The position numbers were made by a program, and so were the translations under genes. The notes beneath the pieces were generated by a model, which had not been told where the DNA came from, made no database searches, and was given only the letters and a program-made list of their open reading frames with translations. A stretch of 55,135 nt of DNA, filler included, from Sphacelaria rigidula (Eukaryota): the NCBI GenBank assembly GCA_964200075.2. It is 3 parts of 3 records of this genome, joined end to end, with 100 filler letters (N's around TTAATTAATTAA, not from the genome) between each part and the next. Parts side by side here need not be neighbours in the genome. Positions count along the whole stretch, not along the records: positions 1 to 18,316 come from CAXNAA020000877.1; 2 more parts are not named here. One strand, given 5' to 3'. Positions 3,291 through 32,465 of this stretch are shown in pieces (the stretch's first letter is position 1; each line of letters opens with the position of its first letter).

Positions 3291-3892
3291 TTGACGAGCC
3301 TCTCATTATGCTACACGTCAACGTGTCGTGCAACAATTTGAAATGTGCATTTGACCGTCTTTCGAATAAATTGTTGATTCTGAATTCGATCTGTTACTCT
3401 CAATCTCACAAAAAAATGGCCATGCTTACGTTATCAAGCGCTTGACATATTCAATGCCATTCCACTTGTCGTCTTGCCCATGCGCACATGTACCGCCAGA
3501 CACATCAAGAACACGACCGGGTGTACTGCGAAGAACGGGATGGTCATGCGAGCAACTTAACAGCTACGACGGCACCACTACTGCTCAGTGCCGTGCAAAT
3601 ACTGTGAGGTTACTGGAACAAAAAAGCCGGACAAGTACAAGAAAAAATGTTGGAAACACCAGGAACCTGCAGAAAATAAAATGTCTCAGAACACAAAGAT
3701 GCGTGAGTGATTATTTGGCGTCCTCGTCTTCCTCACCCGTCACCCAACAGAGCAGCACCAGACAGCCCAGACTAACCCAAAAAGATGATGTATCGTAGTC
3801 GTACAAACCCGCAAAAATACGGCGAAATGTCGCCCAACAGACCAAGCCAACGTCAGCTGGCGAAACCTACATGTACGGATGGACTCATTGAG

Positions 3893-5482
3893 CTACTTCG
3901 TTCGTCGGCTGGATACCGCCGCGGAGACGTGACCAGAAGGCGTAGACACCCCCAACTCACACTTAATATCGCTTCCCTCTACAGATATACCATCAGTCGC
4001 CGTTGCCACACCAAGTGCCACTTCCACCGGCACTACTCCACGTAGTCGCTTGGCGCTTCTATTTCCACTGACGATGCTGCTACTGCAGCTCGGGTCTTTG
4101 ATGATGCTAGAATTGCCGTTGGCCACGCTACGATAAAGGCTCGATCGTGCAGCAGCTAGTTCGTTGCTCGTTATCCCTTCAGAAACACGCGCGGCGGGGA
4201 AAGTCATCTCCATTTTCACGTTCATGCGCCTCGCTGCCCTATCCGGCGGAACCCCGTCTCCTGCCGCAGCGCTGGCGGCCTGTCCCGAGGCGGCCGGCGG
4301 TGAGGTCGTTGAGTCTATATCGTCTCGTCTAGCCCGACTGGCGCACGAGCTGCGATGGATCTCAACCCTACGACCACCGTCGCTCGCGTTGCGACCGGCA
4401 GCCGACGGATGATTGGGCTTTCTACTACCCCCCCTGCCGCGCGTGGTTGTTCTTGCACCGACCATGCGAGTCAGAGCGTGCGCAGAGCAGAACTCCGCCT
4501 CCCCACTACCCGCTACACCAAACGACGGACTTGTGGAGCAGCCCTCCTCGCTGCACCGCTTGCGTTTCACATTGACCATGCCAGCCTGCGCGTGTGTGGC
4601 GCAGAACTCGGCCTTCCCGCTGCCCGCTACACCAAACGACGGCAATGTGAAGCAGCCCTCTTCGCCACACTTCTTTCTGACACCGACCATGCCAGCCCGA
4701 GCGTGTGTGGCGCAGAACTCCGCCTTCCCGCTACCTGCTACACCGAATGACGGACTCGTCGAGCAGCCCTCCTCGACGCACTTCTTGTTTTTCACATCGA
4801 CCATGCCAGCCCGAGCGTGCGTGGCGCAAAACTCTGCCTTCCCGCTACCCGCTACACCGAATATCGGCCATGTGGAGCAGCCTTCCTCGCTGCACCTCTT
4901 GCTTTTCACATCGACCATGCCAGCCCGAGCGTGTGTGGCGCAGAACTCCGCCTTCCCACTACCCGCTACACCAAACGACGGCCTCGTGGAGCAGCCCTCG
5001 TCGTGGCACCGCTTGCTTTTTACATTGACCATGCCAGCCTGCGCGTGTGTGGCGCAGAACTCCGCCTTCTTACCGCTGCCCGCGACACCAAACGACGGCC
5101 ATGTGGAGCACCCCTCCTCACCGCACTTCTTGTTTGTCACATCGACCATGCCTGCCCGAGCATGCGCGGCGCAAACCTCCGCCTTCCCGCTCCTCGCCAC
5201 ACCAAATGACGGCCTCGTGGAGCAGCCATCCCTGCTGCACCTCTTGCTTTTCACATTAACCATGCCAGCCTGAGCGTGTGTGGCGCAGAACTCCGCCTTC
5301 CCGCTACCTGCTACACCAAATAACGGCCTTGTGAAGCAGCCCTTCTCGCCGCACCTTTTGTTGACCATGCTAGCCCGAGCGTGTGTGGCGCAGAACTCTG
5401 CCTTCCCGCTACCTGCTACACCAAATGACGGCCATGTGAAGCAGCTCTCCTCCCTGCAACTCTTGTTTTTCGCACGGATCAT
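3893..5482 (-). CDS. EsV-1-7 cysteine-rich repeat protein (9 tandem ~38-aa C-x4-C...C-x2-H repeats plus a low-complexity C-terminal tail); true start uncertain
   Basis: The 529-aa ORF has the repeat consensus MVxVKxKxCxEEGCSTxPSFGVAGSGKAEFCATHAxAG, the pattern of the EsV-1-7 family of brown algae and Ectocarpus siliculosus virus. Confidence 0.9.
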   Translation of the reverse strand: MIRAKNKSCREESCFTWPSFGVAGSGKAEFCATHARASMVNKRCGEKGCFTRPLFGVAGSGKAEFCATHAQAGMVNVKSKRCSRDGCSTRPSFGVARSGKAEVCAAHARAGMVDVTNKKCGEEGCSTWPSFGVAGSGKKAEFCATHAQAGMVNVKSKRCHDEGCSTRPSFGVAGSGKAEFCATHARAGMVDVKSKRCSEEGCSTWPIFGVAGSGKAEFCATHARAGMVDVKNKKCVEEGCSTSPSFGVAGSGKAEFCATHARAGMVGVRKKCGEEGCFTLPSFGVAGSGKAEFCATHAQAGMVNVKRKRCSEEGCSTSPSFGVAGSGEAEFCSAHALTRMVGARTTTRGRGGSRKPNHPSAAGRNASDGGRRVEIHRSSCASRARRDDIDSTTSPPAASGQAASAAAGDGVPPDRAARRMNVKMEMTFPAARVSEGITSNELAAARSSLYRSVANGNSSIIKDPSCSSSIVSGNRSAKRLRGVVPVEVALGVATATDGISVEGSDIKCELGVSTPSGHVSAAVSSRRTK

Positions 5483-5650
5483 GCCGGCCTGAGCGATTGT
5501 GGCACAGAACTCTGCCTTCCCCGCTACCCGCTACACAGAATGACGGCCTTGTGGAGTAGCCCCCCTCGCCGCACCTCTGGTTTTTCACATCGACTATGCC
5601 AGCCCAAGCGTATGTCGAGCAAAACTCCACCTTCTAGCTACCCGCCACGC
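5483..5650 (-). pseudogene. decayed upstream EsV-1-7 repeats (stop codon and +1 frameshift)
   Basis: Reads VAGS*KVEFCSTYAWAGIVDVKNQRCGEGGYSTRPSFCVAGSG. An extra C follows (GCCTTCCCCGCT at ~5515-5525, versus GCCTTCCCGCT in intact units) before KAEFCATIAQAG. Confidence 0.8.
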
Positions 5651-6739
5651 TGTGCCCTCGTCGGAAAATCCCTGCGGGCACATGAAGTAGGCATCCCTCC
5701 ACGGCTGTACTAAGAGCACAACAGAGGGCGTGGGAGCTCCGCTGCTGCTATAATCCACACCGCCACAGACCTGAGCGCATGTATCAACTGACCAGTACAG
5801 CAATAGCCTGGAATAATTGACAAGTAAGGGCAACGAAAAATCGTGTCGAAAGGAAAAGTGGATTGACCGCTATCACAGGTCCTTGGTGACAAAGAGATTC
5901 GTGAGCTGCGGTGTTCTTACAACATGAACGCGCTTCAAGAAGCAGAGGGGAACCGGCGTCATTTTTGTGAGAAGACGAGAGCTGCTACCGTGACTGCACC
6001 ACGGCGGGGCGAGTATAAGATTGGAGCAGTGCTTGACCCTTGAGGTCCTCACAATTGTCGTGCTCAGGTCGCACGTATGTGTGTGCTCACACAATTAGTT
6101 CAACATACGACGACAACAGAGGGTTCTGGAAAATGTTATTTTGCATATCAAAGGTGGAGTGAAAGAAACAATAGCCAGTAACGGCGCACGTTCCACTACC
6201 AAAAGTTCTCCAGAGCGAATGTTTCAGAGTAGGGAGTTCCCACTTTGGAGAATTCCGTTTGGAACTATCCACTCTGAAAACTGATGTATCTCTTCAAACT
6301 TCATAGCAGAACGAAAAATACTCACCCCCAACTTCACCACCACGGCCATAGCCAGTCCGCGATCAATACACCCTAACTAGCAAAGTGGGACACCCATCAT
6401 AACTGCCATGCCCATCAAAATGGATCATTCACGAAGTAGCAACGCTTGGCATCGAAATCAGAGGACATCTCTGACGCCGCCATAGTATCAGTATTTCCTT
6501 GGTTGTGTTGCGTGAAATTGAAATGCTCGGCGGGTACACAACGTTGACTTCAGTGCAGTTCCTCACTCTTACCAGCCTCGGCTGAAAGAGGACTGCGTGG
6601 AAGATTCGTAGTCTACAGCGCACAAGTAGTACTACACCTTGCTGCATTACCATTCCCTGACAGATCGTGAAGTCTTGTACCACCCTTATGGGTGGCATGT
6701 TGGAAAATCATTTCAATGCGGCTTTGCCTATTGTTTGGA

Positions 6740-7294: not shown

Positions 7295-10105
7295 TCCTTT
7301 CCCCCGACCGCCACCTGTCTGTGGTTGGTTGTGTCGGGTTAGGCTAACCCTGTCGACAACACAACCAATAAGTAAGGGAGGGTAAGTTGACCTACTGGCT
7401 TGCCTGCGTTTTGTGTCAGTGGCAATGCAACACACAGTCTAGGTAGTGGGTCATGCCGACAGCGCTGACGTCCAGGCTCAATTCTGCAGCTTCGGAATTC
7501 TACCCTAGAATGGGAACCAGATTGAACCCCGCAGCTGCAGCTGTTTACCCGGCGTTGAGACACAGCCACGGAAAGCACGATGATGGAGATGAGGCTCATG
7601 TGGGTAAGTATCATATTCGGCGGACTGGAGATAGCGGCCGACGCGGGATGGGAAGGCTGTACCCTTCCCGCGAGACCAACAAGCAAGGCAAGTACCGTGA
7701 TGACGTGCCAGAGGAAAATCGGAACAGATAAAAGCTCGCCCATATAATTAGGAGGCGGAACAGACCAAGAAGGAGAGAAAAGCAAAGAGAAAGACGCGTG
7801 AATATAGAGAAGGCTAAAGCTGGGTTGCGTAGTGGGGAGCTCAAAGTGGTCACCTATAACGTCTGTACACTGTCCCTCACGAGAAAGAATGGAGCTGGCC
7901 ATACTGAGGTGGTCCTGCAAATATGTCAGGCTGTCGGATGTGACGTCATCGGGCTATAGGAAACGGGGGGACCAGGTCGACGCGAATTTTGTGCGGCGGG
8001 ATATCGTGTATTTTGCTTCGGGCAGAGAGGGGCAAGGAAGGGGCTGGTCAACATGGGGTTGGGTTGGCGGTCAAGGGGTCGATCATCAGCAAGGAAACGT
8101 GGACACAAGCACCCATCAGCGAACGTCTCGTGTCGATGACTTTCAACCTAGCGGGTAAATCAAATTATGCTACGTTTGTAGCTGCATATGCCCCTACAGA
8201 CACGCCACAATCAAGAGAAGAGAGAGAGATGTATTCTAGACTGAGCTAGACGGCATTGTGAACGGCATCACTCACAAACATCACCTGTTTTTATTTTCAT
8301 GCAGGCTAAGGACTGGAGTACGAACAGGAGAGGAGGAACGTAAAATTGTAGCATACGGTCGGGACTCCCGATCCAACCACAGTAACGGTATATCTCTTAT
8401 GCAATTTGCAGGCGACAACAGGCTTTCCCTAGTCAACACGTTTTTCCCCCCCACAAAGGGAAACACCTCGCGTACGTTCAACGGTGTTGCGTATCGCCCC
8501 GCGGACAAGAAACGCCTTGACTACGTCCTCACACGGCAACATCACCGCAGGCTTGTTCGCAATGTCACCGTTCACCTTCAACTTTCCAACTCGCCGGACT
8601 CTGACCACAACATCGTGTGCGCCTCAGTGTGGCTTTTTGGTTGCTTCGCACACAACAGAGCTAGACGAATCCCAAATAGGCGTACACCCATCGACGAACG
8701 AGCGATAGTATATGACCCCGACAGACGTGAACAGCTGACCCAGCTTATCATCAGCGAGCTCAAACGAAGTATACCTAGCGATACAGTTGGTTTACTGACT
8801 ACGAACTTTACCGACGTACTCTTGAATGCCGCTGACAAGGAGGTACCCTGTATGGCCCGAAAGCCACGTATACCGGGGTGGTTCAAGGATGCTGAAATCA
8901 GAACGGCATTGAAGAGGCCTGGATGGAGATGGAAAGGGCGAGATCAACGATGAGACTGGGATCATCTCGAGATAAGCCCGCATGGCGCACATTGCGAGCA
9001 GCATGCAAAAAAGGTCAAAGAGGTGATCCAAGTTGGGACGAACAAATATAGGGAGGTATATTCTAGAGAACTAGAAGAGTATACTCGAGCGGGGGATATG
9101 AGAGGATTTTCTTTCCCTTGATGGAAAGAGGAAACTCAACCCAACACTTACCCCGCAAGCGATCGCAGGCGATCGCTAGCGAGTTCGTGTGCCGATTACC
9201 CGAAGGCTTGGCTTGAGGATGGAACAGACACCTCAACGGAGGGTGGAGACCGTCTGGACGACCGATCGAGACTGAGCAATACATTCGAGATGAGGACGGC
9301 ATTTTACTGCGGGCGAAGGTTTAATCAGTGGGAGATGGGAACCGTACTTCTCTACATCGTTGAACGCCATATCGGCAACCAACTATCGACCGAACCGTCA
9401 TCGAGAAGATTGCTCAACGACCAAAAGCGCTGTCACTAGGAAACCCGCTAAGCCCAGGTGAAACTGAGGAGGCTCTGACAGCTATGTTGAACGGCTACAA
9501 TCGGTCCGCATGGTATTTCTGCTGAAATCCTGAAGCTTGCACTGAACGGGGAGGCGTCGGAGATTCTGTACCACTTGCATAGCATCGTCTCTGCGGTTTG
9601 GACATCTGGCGAAGTGCCGCAAGAATGGAAATATGTCACTATCAAAGTGCTACACAAAAAAAAAAATGCGATCGAGTGTGGTAACTACAGAGGCATCTCA
9701 CTTGTGGCACATACTACTATAGTTCTCGTCAAAATCGCAGCCAACAGGCTCGGTAATTTCTGCGAGGAAACAGATGTCTTCCCGGAATAAGCAGGGTGGA
9801 CTTAGGCGCCAAAAATCGACCGCAGACATGATGTTCGTAGTACGCAGACTTCAGGATTTTGGACGGGCGAGCAACGTCCCAATCAACATATGCTTTATCG
9901 ATTTGCAGAAAGCCTACGATTCCGCAGACTGCACACTTCTGTGGGAAGTGCTTGCTCGGTTCGACGTCCCGTCGCGAATGATCACCATCATCATCCGATA
10001 TTTCACGACGGCATGCGAGCTCGGGTAGATCTAGATAGTGGCGAACTATCAACGTGGTTCCACGTCTGGCAGGACTCAGACAAGGTTGCGTTTCGCCCCC
10101 GCTGG
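7295..10105 (+). mobile_element. decayed non-LTR retrotransposon (RTE-like LINE): 5' UTR, APE endonuclease and partial reverse transcriptase; 3' part lost
   Basis: APE motifs: LKVVTYNV, CDVIGL*ET, QHGVGLAV, FVAAYAPT, RLDYVL, SDHNIV. RT motifs: [39 protein letters not shown]. It carries many stops and frameshifts and ends before the YADD motif. Confidence 0.93.
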
Positions 10106-25100: not shown

Positions 25101-28100
25101 CTTTGGAAGACTATACCATGCCGTACCCCGCTCCTCGCCTCTTTCGGCCCTCCCGTCCTCACGCCCCCCTCGCGCTGCTCTCGGTCCTCCGTGCAGACCA
25201 TAGACGTGCAGGTGGAGGGAGAAGGACCAGAAGTGGGGAACGTGAAGGCCAGCAACTCCAAGAAGACGGTGTGTGATTGCTGTATACGACATCAAGATCA
25301 GAATACGGTTGATGGACTCCAGGTTGGAGTGTGCTAACCATTCCACCAGTGAAAGAGCGGCGGGGTTAACACAGCATACTCAAGCTTGGTAGCGTATAAA
25401 CTTACGTCATAGCGAGAGCGAACCTCCCGCAATGCCGAGAATTGATCACTCCTTGCGCGAGGCGGCTTGTTGCTAGCACCGTAGGCGACATTGATGACTG
25501 GTTGGATCTAGACGAAACCCGAATGCAGAACAGAAAATCAAGATCCAGCGACGGTGCAACTCGCTAGTGGATCTCTTCCGACCGAAATATACCCCAATCG
25601 GAAAATAACGCCAATAGCGTTCATGGAGTCAGTCGACGACCAATAGTTTTCGTCCATTCTGGTTCTCCGTATGAATAAACGGACTACTAGGAAACTTGAC
25701 GGTCAAGTCTCCCTTGTTGCTGTTCGTGCCCGTTCAGGTTCGATACATGTTCTTGTGTGCGAGGGAGAATGGGGACAAGGTCATACAGGCCTTCGTCGAC
25801 AAGGCCTTCACGTGGTACCGCGAGGCCATGGAAAATACAGAAGACCATTCGCGCTATCTCTTCACGCTTCTGTCGGAAAACCAATCTGACTCGCTCACAG
25901 GCTTCAACGCTAATCCATCGAATGTGTATGGCATCCCGGGGGGGGGCAGGGTCATGGGTATGAAGGGGAAGCAGACCAACTCTCACAGGTGGGATTCCTG
26001 GCTTCTAACAACATTGAAATCACTAACTTCCTGAGATTGGCCATACCCTACGGTGTATCAACGATCACGCTGGAATGTATGGGTATTCGAACGCAACGCC
26101 GTCTCCTTCACATTGTTTCTAGATAGAACTTTCTTCGTGTTCATCTTGGCGCTATTTCGATGTCTCGTGGGGGGAGATAGCTGTGGGGGAAGAAGGGGTC
26201 AGGTACAAGTCCAGAGTCGTGCCATACCGTGTGCATTGTGGCGAAATCATGTGCACGGCACAATCATGCAAAATCTTGCAGCACTTGCACCTATTAGTAC
26301 TGAAAATGTCCCGAATCGCGTGCCAGGTACAAACGGTACAAGCTTGGTGACACGAAGGACTTCGATAGTCTTTTTTTCCCGGAGAAGCCTGCTCTGCTCA
26401 AGATTCTTAATCACTTCGAGAGCAAAACAGGTACGATGTGGTGCCCACCTTCACCAAACCGTTCACAGGGTTGCTGACTTAAAGCAGAGCATCGAGCTTA
26501 TTCCGCGCCGTGTCCGCCCCTCTTGCGCCACCAGCTGTCAAAACAATCGAAAAACACCCAACGCAGAGTGGTTCTACGAAATGGGTGCACAATTTGTTTC
26601 TGAGGCTCAGCACTGCCCGAGCCTCTGAATGACAAGCATCTGGGCCTCAGTGTGCAGCCTCAGAAACATTTGGACTAAAAAGTGCACCTCTGCCTTAGAA
26701 TCCCTCTCCAAAAGCTCTCCCATGTGACAGTGGCCACGCGTCCAGGGCTGCGTCAATGATATAACCATCGCCACCACGGCATGAAAGCAAGACCCACTGT
26801 CCCTTCCTCCAGCCCTTCAGCTGCAGACACAACTCACCCCACCCACCCGCCTCACCTCACTCCATCCATGGACCAGGCAAATACCAGATCAGGGGGTATC
26901 CCCACAAGTTGGGATTACTGCTGCACGGTCCACCAGGCACGGGCAAGACTTCCTTGATCAAGGCGCTGGCTCTGCACACCAAAAGGCATATTGTCAACGT
27001 GCCACTGGCTCGTATCGAGACAAGCCAGGTAAGTTTACTCTGGGGGTCTGAGTGATGGTGTTGGGCAGGCCTCGCTCCTGCGGTTGAGGTTTCTTTCCAT
27101 GGCTGTGTTTAAACAGAACCCGTCCCGCTCTACGAAGCTTGGGTAGTTCATCCTCTTTGACGCGAAATCACGACTACACTGTGTGCGTGTGTTTTCTATT
27201 GGAATGTCGCCGTGGCTTGTGTGCTATACACAGCGTTCAACTGTCAACTTGACAGGAACAATCGGTTCAACTCGTGAACCCAGCTGCGTCAAGAGAGCTC
27301 GCAGAGGCTGTACACCAGTGTTGGTTAAACACCTACCTGCTTTGTACAATGAAGGAAATAAGGAGATGGTTTACTTTTGTGCTTCACCTGGCCGAACACA
27401 GAGTAAAACACAATGAAACGCTTGGTTCCTCATCAACGCAGGAACCAATGACAAGCTGATAGGCTGTATCGAGTGGATGAAAAAAAGAGAGCGAACACGA
27501 GTCGCTACCTGAACAAACTGTCCAATCTCAACAACACGTTTCGTACCATGAACTGTACGATTTGACCTATACAACCATGAACTGTACATTCACAAACTCG
27601 TGATACTACAATCAAACAATCAATCAGTCAATTAACTATGGACTCTTCAAGTCAAGCTCTGCGCTATTCTGACACTCACACTTTCATCGGATTTCACGTG
27701 CTCCGGGTGCATCGTCGTGATAAACGGTTGGCCGTTCCAGGCCTATGCTGACACATCATTAATTTTACGGATTATCATTTTCATTTCGCACGCATTCTCG
27801 AGTTGACATACGCTGGACAGTAACCAGCAGGAACACAAAAAGGGCGAACGACAAGAACGGACTAAACTGGTGGGGGAAAGCTCACACCATCAAACTTCGT
27901 GACATGTGGAGCCACATCTCAAACCCTGTCAGTTACCTGGATCATTACTGCAAGCATGATATCGGGTATACCTTAATTCTGGTCACAGAAGAATACGAAA
28001 TAGCAAACCGGTCCATCTATCCATCATTCTCCGAAATGTCATGATCAAACCTTGGTATATTTTCCCCTGCACTCCTAGTGCACTCAGGTATATACGTCTC

Positions 28101-30863
28101 ACGTACACCCATATTATCCTTGAGCGTATGTATATTCGATCACAGTTCGATCTGTCCACGCACCTACCATAGTGTTGAATCCGTTCGTACTGTCTGTTTT
28201 ACGTTCTACTGATATTGATGTTCATGCTGAATCGTAACTTATTCTGCCACTATACTGTATATAGATGTGTGATTTCTCACCAACACTTGCGCCCACAACT
28301 TGTGTCGCCAGGATTTGACGGACATCATGTTCGACCAGAGTTTCCCCGTTGTCGGCGAGGATCTGCCCATCTCTCTTTCGTTCGAGAACATCATCTTTGT
28401 TATGGAGGATATCGACGCAGCATCGCCAATCGTTCGATCTCGCGAACGCGCTTCCCACAAGCACCGAAGAAGGCAAAAAGCATCCGCAAAAGCCTTGAAG
28501 GCGAAACAGGCGGAAGCCGCGGCGAAGAGCAACCGGGACACCGCCGACAAGCGTGGGAGCGATGAGAGAACCCAATCGCTAGACAGCGACGTTGCAATAT
28601 CGTCTGCATACGAAGCCACTACTGCGACTGCTACCGTCACCGCGATCGCCGCCACCGCTAACATCCGAAGCACCCAGGCTGCTTGTGCCGCACCCGCATC
28701 GCTTGGGTATGATAATGAAAACGGGCAGATTGAAGACGCCATCTCCTTGGTGGACTCCGTGGACGCACAAGCAATGACCGGAGCTAGCGTCGGTGTGAAC
28801 GGGCACGAGGAGGCAGGAAGCGCGAGATGTCCCGCGAGGATCAATGTTAACGGGGACCTGGACGCGGGAAAGGACGGCGACAAGGTGAAATTGTTTTCGT
28901 CAAAATTGTATCCATTGCCCATCTCTGTGTCGCGTCGCAAGACCGAAGAGGATGGGGCAAGCGAGTCGACAGACAGCTTCGAGAAAGTTGTCCATGTCGG
29001 CAAGCAGAAAGACGAGAGTGATGGGGACACCCAGAGACTGCGAGTGTGCGAAAATGGTCGAAGACAACGAGGACATGAGGGCGGTGTTGACATCTTGCAT
29101 AATGGCGGTAAGGCTGTCACGGTTATCGACAAAACCGCCATCGTCATCAGCAATAATGCAGGTGCCCTTCCCCGCTTCTCTCCCGGAGTCGCGCCAGCGG
29201 GTGGGAAATCCCCAAACCTCATTCTGGACAACCGGGATGTGGTCGTTGTTGAAGACAGGAGTAGCGATAGGGGAGGGCAGACGGTGGCGCAGAACACAAT
29301 GAAGACACCCTCAAGCCATAGTTCCACCGCGAGAGACGCCGGTGATGCAGCAGCAGCGTCGGCTTCCGTCAAGGCGGCAAGCACATTCCCCATGGAAGAG
29401 CAGAGAAAAGAGGAGGAGTCGGATTCCGATTCGTCCTACTGCGGATCGTCGGATTCCGAGGATTCAGATAGCAGTACCAGCGGTGACGGGAGGGGTTTTC
29501 AGAGCGGACGAGGTAGAGACAATAACAAGAGCGCTTCGATGGTAAAGGCCCTCGCTAACACTCTCGTGGCAGGAAGTAAGAAGGCCGATCGGCGTGAGAG
29601 GAAGAAGTATGCCAGTAAGACGGGGAAGCTTGACCTCGCGGTGAGTGTTGTTGTAAATGATGTGACAGACAGGCATGATTGATTGCGATGCACGCCCTTT
29701 TCTCTCTACAAAGGCCTCAGCCAAGGTGATCTCCACAGCTATTGGAGAAGCCCGTTCCCGCTAATGGTACGAGTACACACAGCCCTGTCGGTTTCTGATT
29801 TCCTCAACTGAAGAATATTCATACTTTCCCGTACATCGTGCATGGTATGGAGGTGTGTGTCAAGCACTGCATTTCGCACTTCGCTGGTTGCTTGTATAGA
29901 CTTCGCACCCGTGGTGAATCTCTTAGGTGTCCACACGTTCGTACGCCTCGCTTGATGCATTCCATTTTTTCAGGGACTTTTGAACGCCCTCGACGGGGTG
30001 GTAGACACACCAGGGCGCATCGTGATCATGACCACCAACCACCCAGAGTCTCTCGACCCAGCTCTCATCCGTCCAGGACGAATCGACAAGAAGATCCACC
30101 TTGGATACATGAGGTAAGGATCAACTGCAGTACGGTTCAATCTTGTTGATTTGGAAGACGATGTCCACGTGTCAACTGCCCCAGGTTCGTTTCTTCGTAA
30201 GCTTGGCTGCAGTGTGTTCCCAGGAGGAACTGCGAAGACCCGACCACGTGTAGAACATGTGATCGTGCGCGTCGGGTTGATATTGCAGTCGGCCTCAAAC
30301 CACCATGTTTTTCGTCTCCAAGAGGGACCCAATGCCCAGCCCTGGCATATTCCAACGACCGTGGTGTCTCTGTCCTCGTATGTGCTGACATACGCCATCT
30401 ACAGGTCCTGAGAAACTCTGCTCTTCGTCGTTAACCTTCCCGCGCTCTTCTATCGCCCAATATTCAAGAATGTGCCGCGATCACCTTTTGTTTAACTCTA
30501 CATCCTGCCGAGTGATGGTTCCTCGACGTTCGCTGTTTCCACCTCGTTCTCCTTCGTTTGAGGCATGCTCTGCATGTACTACGCAGTACGTGAAATCTAT
30601 GCTTTTGCGGAGCTCTACTCACACTACCGCCCCCCCCCGCGCCCCTACCCTCTCCCAGGTATCCCGCCGCGCTCGAAATGACTCGGCACTTTTTCCAGGA
30701 AGAACAGCTGGGGCTAGATCATGCGGAACGCCTCGAGACTGTGTTCAACGACAGACGCCAGCTTACACCCGCCGTGGTTGAACAGCTGGCAGGCGAGTGC
30801 GACACGATAGGCGACTTCGTGGCCGCGTTGGAAGCCCTCCCGTTCTCGCGTCCTTGTGCTTGA
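22126..30863 (+). CDS. BCS1-like AAA+ ATPase, 12 exons, ~924 aa
   Basis: Manual GT-AG splicing of 22126-22161, 22391-22582, 23240-23332, 23791-23889, 24791-24892, 25197-25268, 25738-25988, 26327-26430, 26877-27028, 28312-29640, 29974-30113 and 30659-30863 gives 2775 nt in one open frame. Motifs: Walker [15 protein letters not shown], Walker [41 protein letters not shown]. The first exon is the least certain. Confidence 0.9.
22391..22582 (+). CDS. BCS1-like ATPase exon 2 (N-terminal hydrophobic segment)
   Basis: gcag|GTG...AAG|gtga; encodes [19 protein letters not shown]. Confidence 0.8.
23240..23332 (+). CDS. BCS1-like ATPase exon 3
   Basis: acag|ATG...CAG|gtgag; encodes [16 protein letters not shown]. 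Confidence 0.8.
23791..23889 (+). CDS. BCS1-like ATPase exon 4
   Basis: gcag|ATG...ACG|gtacgt; phase 0. Confidence 0.75.
24791..24892 (+). CDS. BCS1-like ATPase exon 5
   Basis: acag|CGA...ATG|gtgcg; encodes [14 protein letters not shown]. Confidence 0.8.
25197..25268 (+). CDS. BCS1-like ATPase exon 6
   Basis: Pyrimidine tract, then gcag|ACC...ACG|gtgtgt. Confidence 0.75.
25738..25988 (+). CDS. BCS1-like ATPase exon 7
   Basis: tcag|GTT...CACAG|gtgg; encodes [12 protein letters not shown]...SRYLF. Confidence 0.8.
26327..26430 (+). CDS. BCS1-like ATPase exon 8
   Basis: ccag|G TAC...ACAG|gtacg; encodes [20 protein letters not shown]. Confidence 0.85.
26877..27028 (+). CDS. BCS1-like ATPase exon 9 (Walker A)
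   Basis: Encodes [26 protein letters not shown]; ends CAG|gtaagt. Confidence 0.92.
27230..27465 (+). repeat. intronic fragment of the 53717-55030 element family
   Basis: CAATCGGTTCAACT.GTGAACCCAGCT...CAAGAGAGCTCGCAGAGGCTG and TTGGTTCCT.ATCAACGCAG match ~54490-54705. Confidence 0.85.
28312..29640 (+). CDS. BCS1-like ATPase exon 10 (Walker B + long insertion)
   Basis: ccag|GAT...GCG|gtgagt; 443 open codons, including [12 protein letters not shown]. Confidence 0.88.
29974..30113 (+). CDS. BCS1-like ATPase exon 11 (sensor 1/Arg finger)
   Basis: Encodes [46 protein letters not shown]; ends AG|gtaagg. Confidence 0.92.
30659..30863 (+). CDS. BCS1-like ATPase terminal exon
   Basis: ccag|G TAT...TGA; encodes MTRHFF...LTPAVVEQL. 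Confidence 0.85.
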
Positions 30864-30955: not shown

Positions 30956-32465
30956 CACACGTAGGACAGCTCATGAGCTAGCTCATCTGCGGGCGGTAGA
31001 TCACTTGTAGTCAAACATGTACATGTGAGCTACGTCCGATAGCTCAACACAAGGTAAACGTGCGCTAGTGAGCTACGAGTTGGTAGCTCACCGAGGGAAA
31101 ATATGTGTAGCTCATGCAGCTCTCATAGCTCACCCAGAGCGAATCTGAGCTGATGAGCTACGGGTTGGTAGCTCACCCAGGGCAAACATGCGTAGCTCAT
31201 TCAGCTCTCATAGCTCACCCAGGACGAATCTGAGCTGATAAGCTACGGGTTGGTAGCTCACATATCGCAAACGTGCGTAGCTCATACAGCTCCCATAGCT
31301 CACCCAGGGCGAATATGAGCTGATGAGCTACGGGTTGGTAGCTCACCCAGGGAAAACATATGCGGATGAGCTACGCTCGATAGCTCACCCAAGGCAAACG
31401 TGTGTAGCTCACGTAGCTCTTCTTTTAGCTTACCCGGGGAAAACATGAGCGGATGAGCTATGCCCGGTAGCTCACCCCAGGGACACATGGTCGTGGCTCA
31501 CTCACGTCATGTGCCTAGCTCGCCGCTGGCCAACCCCGTGTCGCTTATGATGCAACATTCTTGTTCGAACGGATGGTGCCACATATCATTAGGTTGTTGT
31601 GATGTTTTACCTCACTCTTCGCGATAGGGAGAAAATAACCCAACAGATCCTCGTTCGCTTGGTCGGATGGTTAAAAAAAGTATTAGTATTCAGTTTATAC
31701 AGTAATCGACTGATTCATTTCTTTTGATCGGTTGACCGCGAGGGTACGAATCCATCTGGTTATGCATACGTTTTTCAAGTGAAAGTGGAGCCGATGCAAC
31801 AGATAGATGACTTATGCTCGCCGTCAAGGGTTTAGCCCTTTGACCGCGAGGGTTGGCGATCTGATAAATCAGCATAATTCACTTGATTTTTCGGGAGTGA
31901 ATGATGCCGATTCAGAGACCTCCTACCTTCGCGGTCAAAGGAATAGGCAATCGTAGCTCTCATAGCTCCCATAGTTCATCCAGGGCAAATATGTGTAGCT
32001 CATGCATCTCTTATAGCTCATCCAGGGCAAACATGTGTAGCTGATGCAGCTCCCATAGCTCATCCGGGGCAAACATGTGTAGCTCATGCAGCTCCCATAG
32101 CTCACCCAGGACGAATATGAGTTAATGAGCTACGAGTTGGTAGCTCACGTACGGTAAACATGCGTAGCTCATGCAGCTCTCATAGCTCACCCAGGACGAA
32201 TCTGAGCTGATGAGCTACGGGTTGGTAGCTCATCTATCGCAAACATGCGTAGCTCATACAGCTCCCATAGCTCATTCAGGACGAATATGAACTGATGATC
32301 TACGGGTTGGTAGGTCACGTACGGTAAACATGCGTAGCTCATACAGCTCTCATAGCTCAGCCCAGAAGAAACATGCGTAGCTCTTGTAGCTCTCATGGCT
32401 CACTAGGGAGCTACGCTAAAAAAGAGCTAGCTCGAGCTATAGGGAACTGATCTGTCCGACGTGTG
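30956..32465. mobile_element. non-autonomous DNA transposon (hAT- or P-like, 8-bp TSD) filled with TAGCTCA/GAGCTA sub-repeats
   Basis: TIRs are CACACGTAGGACAG / CTGTCCGACGTGTG. The perfect TSD ATAGAGTT lies at 30948-30955 and 32466-32473. Confidence 0.9.
31732..31941. mobile_element. tandem pair of piggyBac-like MITEs nested in the 8-bp-TSD element
   Basis: TTGACCGCGAGGGT...GTCAAGGG, TTTAG, CCCTTTGACCGCGAGGGT...CGCGGTCAAAGG; same core as 3189-3290. Confidence 0.7.

Follow-up and report, generated by a model that had tools for sequence, protein, structure and literature searches.

A tandem C-x4-C-x16-C-x2-H spacing is said to have been taken by Macaisne et al. in 2017 as the definition of the EsV-1-7 family. 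In the available excerpts of the published accounts, the EsV-1-7 domain is presented as one whose function is unknown and which may be a novel zinc finger (10.1101/2024.02.19.579948; PMC7457493; PMC12477816). With 2018 proteins in 31 genomes, the family is described as one of the largest gene-family expansions of brown algae, and its member IMMEDIATE UPRIGHT (IMM) as a protein with five repeats and a unique N-terminal domain without repeats (10.1101/2024.02.19.579948, in the portion available). Earlier publications already cover the family and its expansion, its link to viruses and the conjecture of a zinc finger. Here we describe a gene of Sphacelaria rigidula that encodes nine EsV-1-7 repeats. 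It lies in a stretch of 55,135 nucleotides (nt) of assembly GCA_964200075.2, which was analysed as a whole, is referred to as the window, and contains four runs of N. The window gene is a new member of the known family, one ordinary paralogue among hundreds, and its value lies in what comparison makes testable, as comparison across the family opens the question of EsV-1-7 function to testing.

Within each repeat Cys1, Cys6, Cys23 and His26 were numbered as the ligands, and position 9 is the last residue of the triplet that follows the second Cys, three residues after it. The explanation towards which we lean, with slightly better than even confidence, is that the gene encodes a nuclear DNA-binding zinc-finger array that is free of nuclease, is probably transcribed, and would have its specificity mainly at position 9.

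Like the other brown-alga EsV-1-7 proteins, IMM among them, the window protein has this repeat type in a tandem array without another Pfam domain, and shares in the brown-alga expansion. Judged by the description of IMM in the part of the source at hand, it differs in having nine repeats rather than the five reported, in a tail of the Sphacelaria type, and in the want of an IMM-type N-terminal domain, repeat 1 following after 8 amino acids (aa) with in-frame stops upstream. Homologous arrays are found in giant-virus proteins that combine array and nuclease, with 30-50% array identity in most of the nuclease-fused matches listed and with position 9 hypervariable in both groups. In contrast to these, the window protein has no nuclease domain, host position 11 is mostly Ser, and the scaffold reads FG-AG in hosts and FN-EG in viruses. 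A near-invariant tandem scaffold, a conserved linker and a few fixed sites under positive selection (for EsV-1-7, in relatives) are features also of C2H2 and TALE arrays, and the natural fusion of array and nuclease recalls the engineered zinc-finger nucleases (ZFNs) and TALENs. The fold and ligand spacing are nevertheless unrelated, and the likeness would be one of logic only.

Repeat architecture and constraint on the scaffold

The coding sequence (positions 3893 to 5482, minus strand) was taken from the list of open reading frames (ORFs) and from Pfam, and specifies 529 aa, comprising nine EsV-1-7 repeats (aa 9-347) and a tail of 182 aa. As the earlier note on this DNA had recognised, the array belongs to EsV-1-7: the 529-aa ORF matched EsV_1_7_cys (PF19114) in nine stretches with E 6.1e-135 (439 bits against a cut-off of 25), and no second Pfam family rose above its cut-off in this ORF. 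The ligand expression C-x4-C-x16/17-C-x2-H found nine units between 5458 and 4442, eight with x16 and one with x17, and 36 of 36 putative metal ligands are intact. Classical CCCH fingers have the spacing C-x8-C-x5-C-x3-H. The proposal that this is a CCCH array was thus correct as to the Cys3His ligand set, which the array has in common with zf-CCCH (PF00642), but not as to the class, since the spacing is C-x4-C-x16-C-x2-H and zf-CCCH gave no Pfam match at E <= 1.

The repeat module is 38 aa long, and modules are joined by the basic linker GMV(D/N)VK-K-R/K. The sequence FGVAGSGKAEFCATHA is exact in six of the nine repeats, while repeats 3, 4 and 9 differ from it by 1-3 changes or one inserted K. 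Mapped on the minus strand by the ligand expression and alignment, repeat 1 (CREESCFTW, with a short linker) occupies 5354-5458 and is followed by repeat 2 (CGEKGCFTR) at 5240-5353 and by repeat 3 (CSRDGCSTR) at 5126-5239, which on pairwise comparison is the most diverged of the inner repeats. Repeat 4 (CGEEGCSTW, 5009-5125) contains the extra Lys that gives C-x17-C, and is followed by repeat 5 (CHDEGCSTR, 4895-5008), repeat 6 (CSEEGCSTW, 4781-4894), repeat 7 (CVEEGCSTS, 4670-4780), repeat 8 (CGEEGCFTL, 4556-4669) and the terminal, diverged repeat 9 (CSEEGCSTS, 4442-4555). The four residues between the first two cysteines (REES, GEKG, SRDG, GEEG, HDEG, SEEG, VEEG, GEEG, SEEG) and the triplets after the second (FTW, FTR, STR, STW, STR, STW, STS, FTL, STS) agree exactly in our alignment with those that had been listed for nine repeats. 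From repeat 1 to repeat 9 the last residue of the triplet reads W, R, R, W, R, W, S, L, S, so that the alternation of R and W that had been pointed out for repeats 3-6 does exist. It carries no weight, because the repeats are similar without a two-repeat periodicity, identities between neighbours (i, i+1) and next neighbours (i, i+2) being alike in the array. Tandem Repeats Finder delimited the array as 4459-5645, with 10.5 copies of 114 nt, which is longer than the repeats within the ORF, and scored periods of 114, 231 and 345 nt at 1393, 1456 and 1457. A hidden Markov model (HMM) built from the nine repeats and run on the window found no EsV-1-7 gene besides this one and its upstream relic.

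Pairwise Nei-Gojobori counts were made among the nine repeats. Over all codons the proportion of synonymous differences (pS) was 0.34 and that of non-synonymous differences (pN) 0.13, and for the scaffold the ratio of non-synonymous to synonymous rates (dN/dS) was 0.09, indicating strong purifying selection; the linker gave 0.78. Since pS has reached 0.34 while scaffold dN/dS is 0.09, the repeats are old and their scaffold has been maintained by selection. Non-synonymous and synonymous changes stood at 14:5 in the sites that had been named as variable and at 9:18 in the scaffold (Fisher P 0.016, for a class of sites chosen post hoc). The per-position profile of the array correlated with the within-array profile of host arrays (Spearman 0.71, P 6e-7), a correlation to which the invariant ligand positions contribute.

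Fast-evolving positions in relatives

A search for homologues gave 432 matches at E <= 0.001, the best 120 of which were listed and used for counts. The closest matches listed are proteins of S. rigidula itself (up to 67% identity), followed by those of other brown algae and green algae and by many metagenome proteins. A family profile was made from 583 canonical repeats, found in 118 of the best 120 of the 432 homologues, with entropy calculated over arrays of at least five repeats. Mean within-array entropy was highest at position 9 (1.81 bits, 73 arrays), followed by linker positions 36 and 35 and then by position 11. With the two classes taken apart, position 9 led in the 40 nuclease-free arrays (1.88 bits) and came second in the 48 that are fused to a nuclease (1.66 bits).

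A scan of metagenomes for DNA of brown-alga paralogues returned only distant arrays, with 29-49% identity. For the codon test, 80 loci from IMG/VR provided 72 distinct frames with 380 canonical repeats, and in the 53 arrays of at least four repeats dN over pooled dS was greatest at positions 11 (1.79) and 9 (1.56). When repeat pairs were binned by pS to guard against saturation, pN/pS at positions 9 and 11 was 5.5 and 6.6 at pS < 0.1 (95 pairs, 26 arrays) and 2.5 and 3.2 at pS 0.1-0.2 (191 pairs, 31 arrays), the excess fading with older repeat pairs. Confidence intervals were obtained by bootstrap over arrays having pairs at pS < 0.2, for 36 IMG/VR arrays and, as another set, for 18 of 39 nuclease-fused metagenome arrays. 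Position 9 gave 3.0 (2.4-3.7) in the former and 3.3 (2.4-4.3) in the latter, position 11 gave 3.2 (2.5-4.0) and 3.1 (1.8-4.6), and position 36 gave 2.7 (2.1-3.3) and 2.8 (2.0-4.0). Positions 2-5 stayed at 0.9 (0.6-1.2) and 0.95, and the other non-ligand positions of the IMG/VR arrays at 0.69.

The residues between the first two cysteines, to which the earlier note had drawn attention as special sites, therefore do not behave as such. Its suggestion of specificity-determining positions, for which it had asked a per-site dN/dS analysis, is borne out for positions 9, 11 and 36, which run at about three times the synonymous rate in young virus and metagenome pairs, and not for the window array, in which the class of variable sites is about neutral (0.76). 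The idea is partly supported and right in outline, with its emphasis moved from the loop between the cysteines to position 9, joined in viruses by position 11 and the linker site. In the window gene itself these positions would be candidates for specificity determinants.

Three residues at position 9 (R in 140, Q in 104 and I in 59) account for 303 of the 380 IMG/VR repeats, a vocabulary too narrow for position 9 of the virus arrays to seem a free site. The residue at position 9 varies independently of that at position 11 (z 1.6). Linker residues 33 (D/N) and 36 (S/N/H/D) were found to be strongly coupled within virus repeats (z 14.8 against within-array shuffles, L001-L080), and the linker may be part of what the array recognises.

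Fusions of the array to DNA-acting enzymes

In 66 of the best 120 of the 432 homologues, mostly metagenome records, the array is followed by a C-terminal nuclease-like domain with the invariants P-D, E-x-D-E-x-x-H and R-x-N-x-D, and at least 559 loci with array and nuclease were counted in IMG/VR viral contigs. By sequence, this domain matched nothing in Pfam at E <= 10, and the best hits among PDB sequences and in PHROGs were at E 0.93 and E 0.1, respectively; Atlas gave a lead only, DUF559/Vsr at 0.84. An AlphaFold2 model of the homologue P0074 had a predicted local distance difference test score (pLDDT) of 81, with the 10-residue blocks of the fused domain mostly at 84-98 and two at 77-80. 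Foldseek matched the domain of this model to proteins of the restriction-endonuclease fold, McrC (E 7e-4) and Hjc, and VIA-align placed it nearest to the catalytic domain of I-Bth0305I (3r3p_B; Z 8.0, root-mean-square deviation 3.3, 95 of 98 residues), followed by NGO0050 (3hrl, Z 7.6) and Vsr (1cw0, Z 7.0). The identity of the fused domain was settled by this fold search, after the sequence libraries had given no match: as modelled, it has a nuclease fold of the Vsr/EDxHD type. I-Bth0305I is described as the prototype EDxHD homing endonuclease (PMC3239194, in the text available). In the window protein itself the nuclease motif expression (P-D ... E-x-D-E-x-x-H ... R-x-N-P-D) found no match.

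It has also been reported that a Tc1/mariner transposase of Ectocarpus gained an N-terminal EsV-1-7 domain (PMC12477816, from the part available). Two unrelated DNA-acting enzymes therefore carry the array as an extra domain, and this is the best available argument for DNA binding by the array. The role in nucleic-acid recognition that had been suggested for the repeats thus gains indirect support from the Vsr/EDxHD-like fusions and the reported transposase fusion, and would fit both. In the accessible portions of the literature found, neither EsV-1-7-nuclease fusions nor a positional code is described.

Other fusions of the array were noticed among the homologues, namely HA (helicase-associated) domains in P0016 and a Tudor domain (PTM/DIR17-like) in P0072, as were ELO and ETF fusions in P0023 and P0110, which are possibly merged gene models.

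Structure models of the array

The AlphaFold2 model of aa 1-350 had a mean pLDDT of 86.7 and a predicted template modelling score (pTM) of 0.55, and each repeat was given the same small pattern of strand and helix. In this model DSSP assigns positions 9-11 to the loop that connects the knuckle with the first strand. Among the BFVD matches of the array model were giant-virus proteins that carry the name 'Endonuclease' in UniProt and, at E 3e-27 and 54% identity, the EsV-1-7 protein of Ectocarpus siliculosus virus 1; E values went down to 7e-40.

Proposed function and rival explanations

Each 38-aa module of the window protein probably folds around one zinc held by Cys1, Cys6, Cys23 and His26 and, going by the model, would contain a knuckle, a short beta-hairpin and a helix of one turn. 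The nine modules probably bind DNA next to one another. Position 9 (W, R, S or L here), which lies in the x-P-x loop after the knuckle, would chiefly decide the preference of each module, and position 11 and linker position 36 would take the same part in the virus relatives. The Ser/Ala/Arg-rich tail, with its KRLR and two psi-K-x-E motifs, may then supply the regulation or effector activity of a nuclear factor that works in the style of transcription regulators. No target and no residue-to-base rule was found in the comparisons made; should a simple rule of this kind exist, the repeats could provide a new programmable DNA-binding scaffold. A wider proposal, which we offer tentatively and regard as doubtful when taken as a whole, is that EsV-1-7 repeats join C2H2 fingers and TALE repeats as a third type of modular DNA reader found in nature. 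The modules would read short DNA steps through positions 9 and 11, which flank an invariant proline, using a limited set of residues (R, Q, I, H and others); giant viruses would use the arrays to aim selfish Vsr-type nucleases, and in brown algae nuclease-free arrays, the window gene and IMM among them, would have been domesticated as a family of transcription factors specific to this lineage, which expanded with multicellularity.

A number of observations weigh against DNA reading through position 9. In the window array the sites that had been named as variable (2, 3, 4, 7, 9 and 11) have a dN/dS of 0.76 and are indistinguishable from neutral, and taking positions 2 and 9 alone gives 2.5, from two codons chosen post hoc. 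The amino-acid changes (a minimum of 36 at 34 non-ligand positions) were not over-dispersed (P 0.37), so that of the claim of a near-invariant scaffold with variation at fixed positions the scaffold and the residue strings stand, but the clustering is weak in this array. Position 11 is variable in nuclease-fused arrays only, being Ser in 181 of 266 host repeats, and at position 9 hosts use a wide range of residues (R, Q, H, Y, K, S, G, L, F, W and others). For these reasons the selection pattern of the viruses may not be transferable to host genes. Four nuclease-free metagenome arrays with young pairs gave 2.1 and 2.6, values that have no confidence interval. The pN/pS ratios themselves come from pairs that are non-independent and arrays that are related, and conditioning on low pS inflates them somewhat, the pooled pN/pS in the lowest bin being 1.2. 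Gene conversion could generate part of the pattern; gene conversion together with selection against the overwriting of these residues would give the same picture, with the diversity still selected. On the structural side, Foldseek of the repeat against the PDB found nothing at E <= 0.001, which is no evidence for a new fold, and the weak neighbours were the zinc-binding domain of nsp13 (E 0.74) and LIM and GATA domains. VIA wide reached a best Z of 3.0, with RING and B-box domains at Z 2-3, and several of these weak neighbours are protein-binding modules. Finally, many Sphacelaria paralogues are without some of the ligands, and in the window gene a 5' repeat has decayed and four ATGs lie upstream, from which it follows that the family turns over quickly.

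Among the rival explanations, the array could be a zinc-stabilised scaffold for protein-protein contacts in the style of LIM, B-box or RING domains, in which the variable positions would be the least constrained surface loop and there would be no code. In favour of this are the structural neighbours, weak without exception, which include LIM domains as well as RING and B-box domains (the latter two at Z 2-3), the near-neutral variable class of the window array (0.76) and the broad position-9 vocabulary of hosts. We nevertheless hold it to be unlikely, since the fusion partners of relatives (Vsr-like nuclease, transposase) act on DNA, and since positions 9 and 11 of the viruses exceed the synonymous rate with a narrow set of residues, as a free loop would not. 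Less probable again is that the gene is a decaying copy from a fast-expanding family, without present function, in which the observed pattern records past constraint. An open frame of 529 aa with 36 of 36 ligands kept, a scaffold dN/dS of 0.09 at pS 0.34 and coverage by contigs of probable RNA runs argue against decay, to be set against a frame-shifted relic repeat and four upstream ATGs in the leader, a gene-poor neighbourhood with a reverse-transcriptase fragment, and the loss of several Cys and His residues in the homologue P0001, the closest among the matches listed (67% identity).

RNA rather than DNA as the ligand, as with many Cys3His fingers, appears slightly more improbable than decay. 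The Cys3His ligand set and the helicase-associated domains of P0016 would suit it, whereas the C-x4-C-x16-C-x2-H spacing is unlike that of zf-CCCH, which Pfam did not detect at E <= 1, and the partner nuclease is of the DNA-cutting Vsr/homing type (PMC3239194, in the text available). A defence factor against viruses or transposons, as the earlier note had also contemplated, seems to us very improbable. The family is indeed common to giant viruses and greatly expanded in brown algae, according to the part of 10.1101/2024.02.19.579948 at hand; nothing was found that points to defence, however, although none of our tests was aimed at it, there being no defence-type domain or neighbour in the window, and IMM, the one characterised member, is given as a developmental regulator in the available text of the sources (10.1101/2024.02.19.579948; PMC7457493).

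Tail

The tail (aa 348-529; 3896-4441, minus strand) is of low complexity and rich in Ser, Ala, Arg and Gly, and by composition and paralogue comparison it is homologous to the tails of S. rigidula paralogues. All its motifs were located on the minus strand. VKME (aa 422-425; 4208-4219) fits psi-K-x-E and occurs at the same place in paralogue tails, and IKCE (aa 506-509; 3956-3967) lies inside a conserved near-C-terminal motif, D-[VI]-K-x-E-L-G-V-S. The two psi-K-x-E motifs, (M/V/I)K(M/V)E and D-V-K-x-E-L-G-V-S (D-I-K-C-E-L-G-V-S in the window copy), are found at matching places in brown-alga tails, both being present in homologues P0001, P0004, P0006, P0012, P0015, P0017, P0040 and others, and they fit what we take to be the SUMO consensus. 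Between them sits KRLR (aa 478-481; 4040-4051), which is KRLR or KWLR in paralogues, resembles a nuclear localisation signal and may act as one. To judge from these motifs, the tail would be compatible with a regulated nuclear protein.

Leader, relic repeats and transcription

Upstream of the coding sequence, 5483-5807 (minus strand) is the probable 5' leader of the same exon, in which three in-frame stops and four short ATG-initiated frames come before the main ATG. Its part at 5483-5645 was found by Tandem Repeats Finder and three-frame translation to be a relic of about 1.5 more repeats, in which there are a one-base frameshift and changes of Cys to Tyr and of His to Tyr or Ile, and from which the linker Met has been lost; the HMM of the window repeats also matches an ORF in this region (5412-5633). 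As its start codon the ORF uses a Met that is conserved in the repeat linkers, and it begins 8 aa ahead of repeat 1. Seven of ten homologues compared (six of them S. rigidula gene models) likewise begin at the linker Met (MVDV.., MVNV.., MLNV..), and EsV-1-7 arrays may be able to lose repeats from the 5' end and yet remain translatable.

Ten public sequencing runs from three studies contain the stretch, none of which is recorded as RNA; X5 and X7, which come from one study, are RNA by the tool's guess only. In the contigs of these two runs the unique parts of 3400-5809 are covered free of gaps, with matching beginning at 5809, and the contigs stop at a pyrimidine tract followed by CAG, after which come 49-50 unmatched letters. 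Depth at 5824-6227 is zero in X5 and X7, while runs X1 and X9 continue across it. From the ends of the X5 and X7 contigs and the sequence context, a probable 3' splice acceptor (pyrimidine tract, then CAG) was placed at 5808-5810 on the minus strand. Because the X5 and X7 contigs end at this acceptor-like site where those of X1 and X9 run on, the data are suggestive, although not proof, of transcription of the window gene and of an intron in its leader.

Logan contigs of at least 90% likeness pile up at 4511-5419, where summed word depth reaches thousands against about 60 in the flanks. In run X1, 745 of 1516 contigs fit two places, which fits many similar repeats elsewhere in the genome and does not measure copy number. 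The contigs are fragmented over the repeats, and many joints inside the array are cross-matches between repeats.

Neighbourhood in the window

Of the 159 stop-to-stop frames of at least 90 aa in the window, 150 were scanned with Pfam, leaving out seven that overlap the gene and the last two listed, and the only matches were a weak RVT_1 fragment and an AAA exon. The reverse-transcriptase (RVT_1) fragment at 9723-10025 (plus strand; E 6e-4, below the Pfam cut-off) is probably what remains of a retroelement. An AAA ATPase gene is represented by exons at 26765-27052 and 28273-29679 (plus strand), with the Walker-A exon matching Pfam AAA at E 7e-8, and a frame of the gene that starts with ..FVMEDIDAA.. 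continues into a long acidic, Ser-rich tail of low complexity. Two tandem arrays of an 85-nt (and 42-nt) repeat lie at 31026-31482 and 31964-32403, about 500 nt apart, with 73-87% matches.

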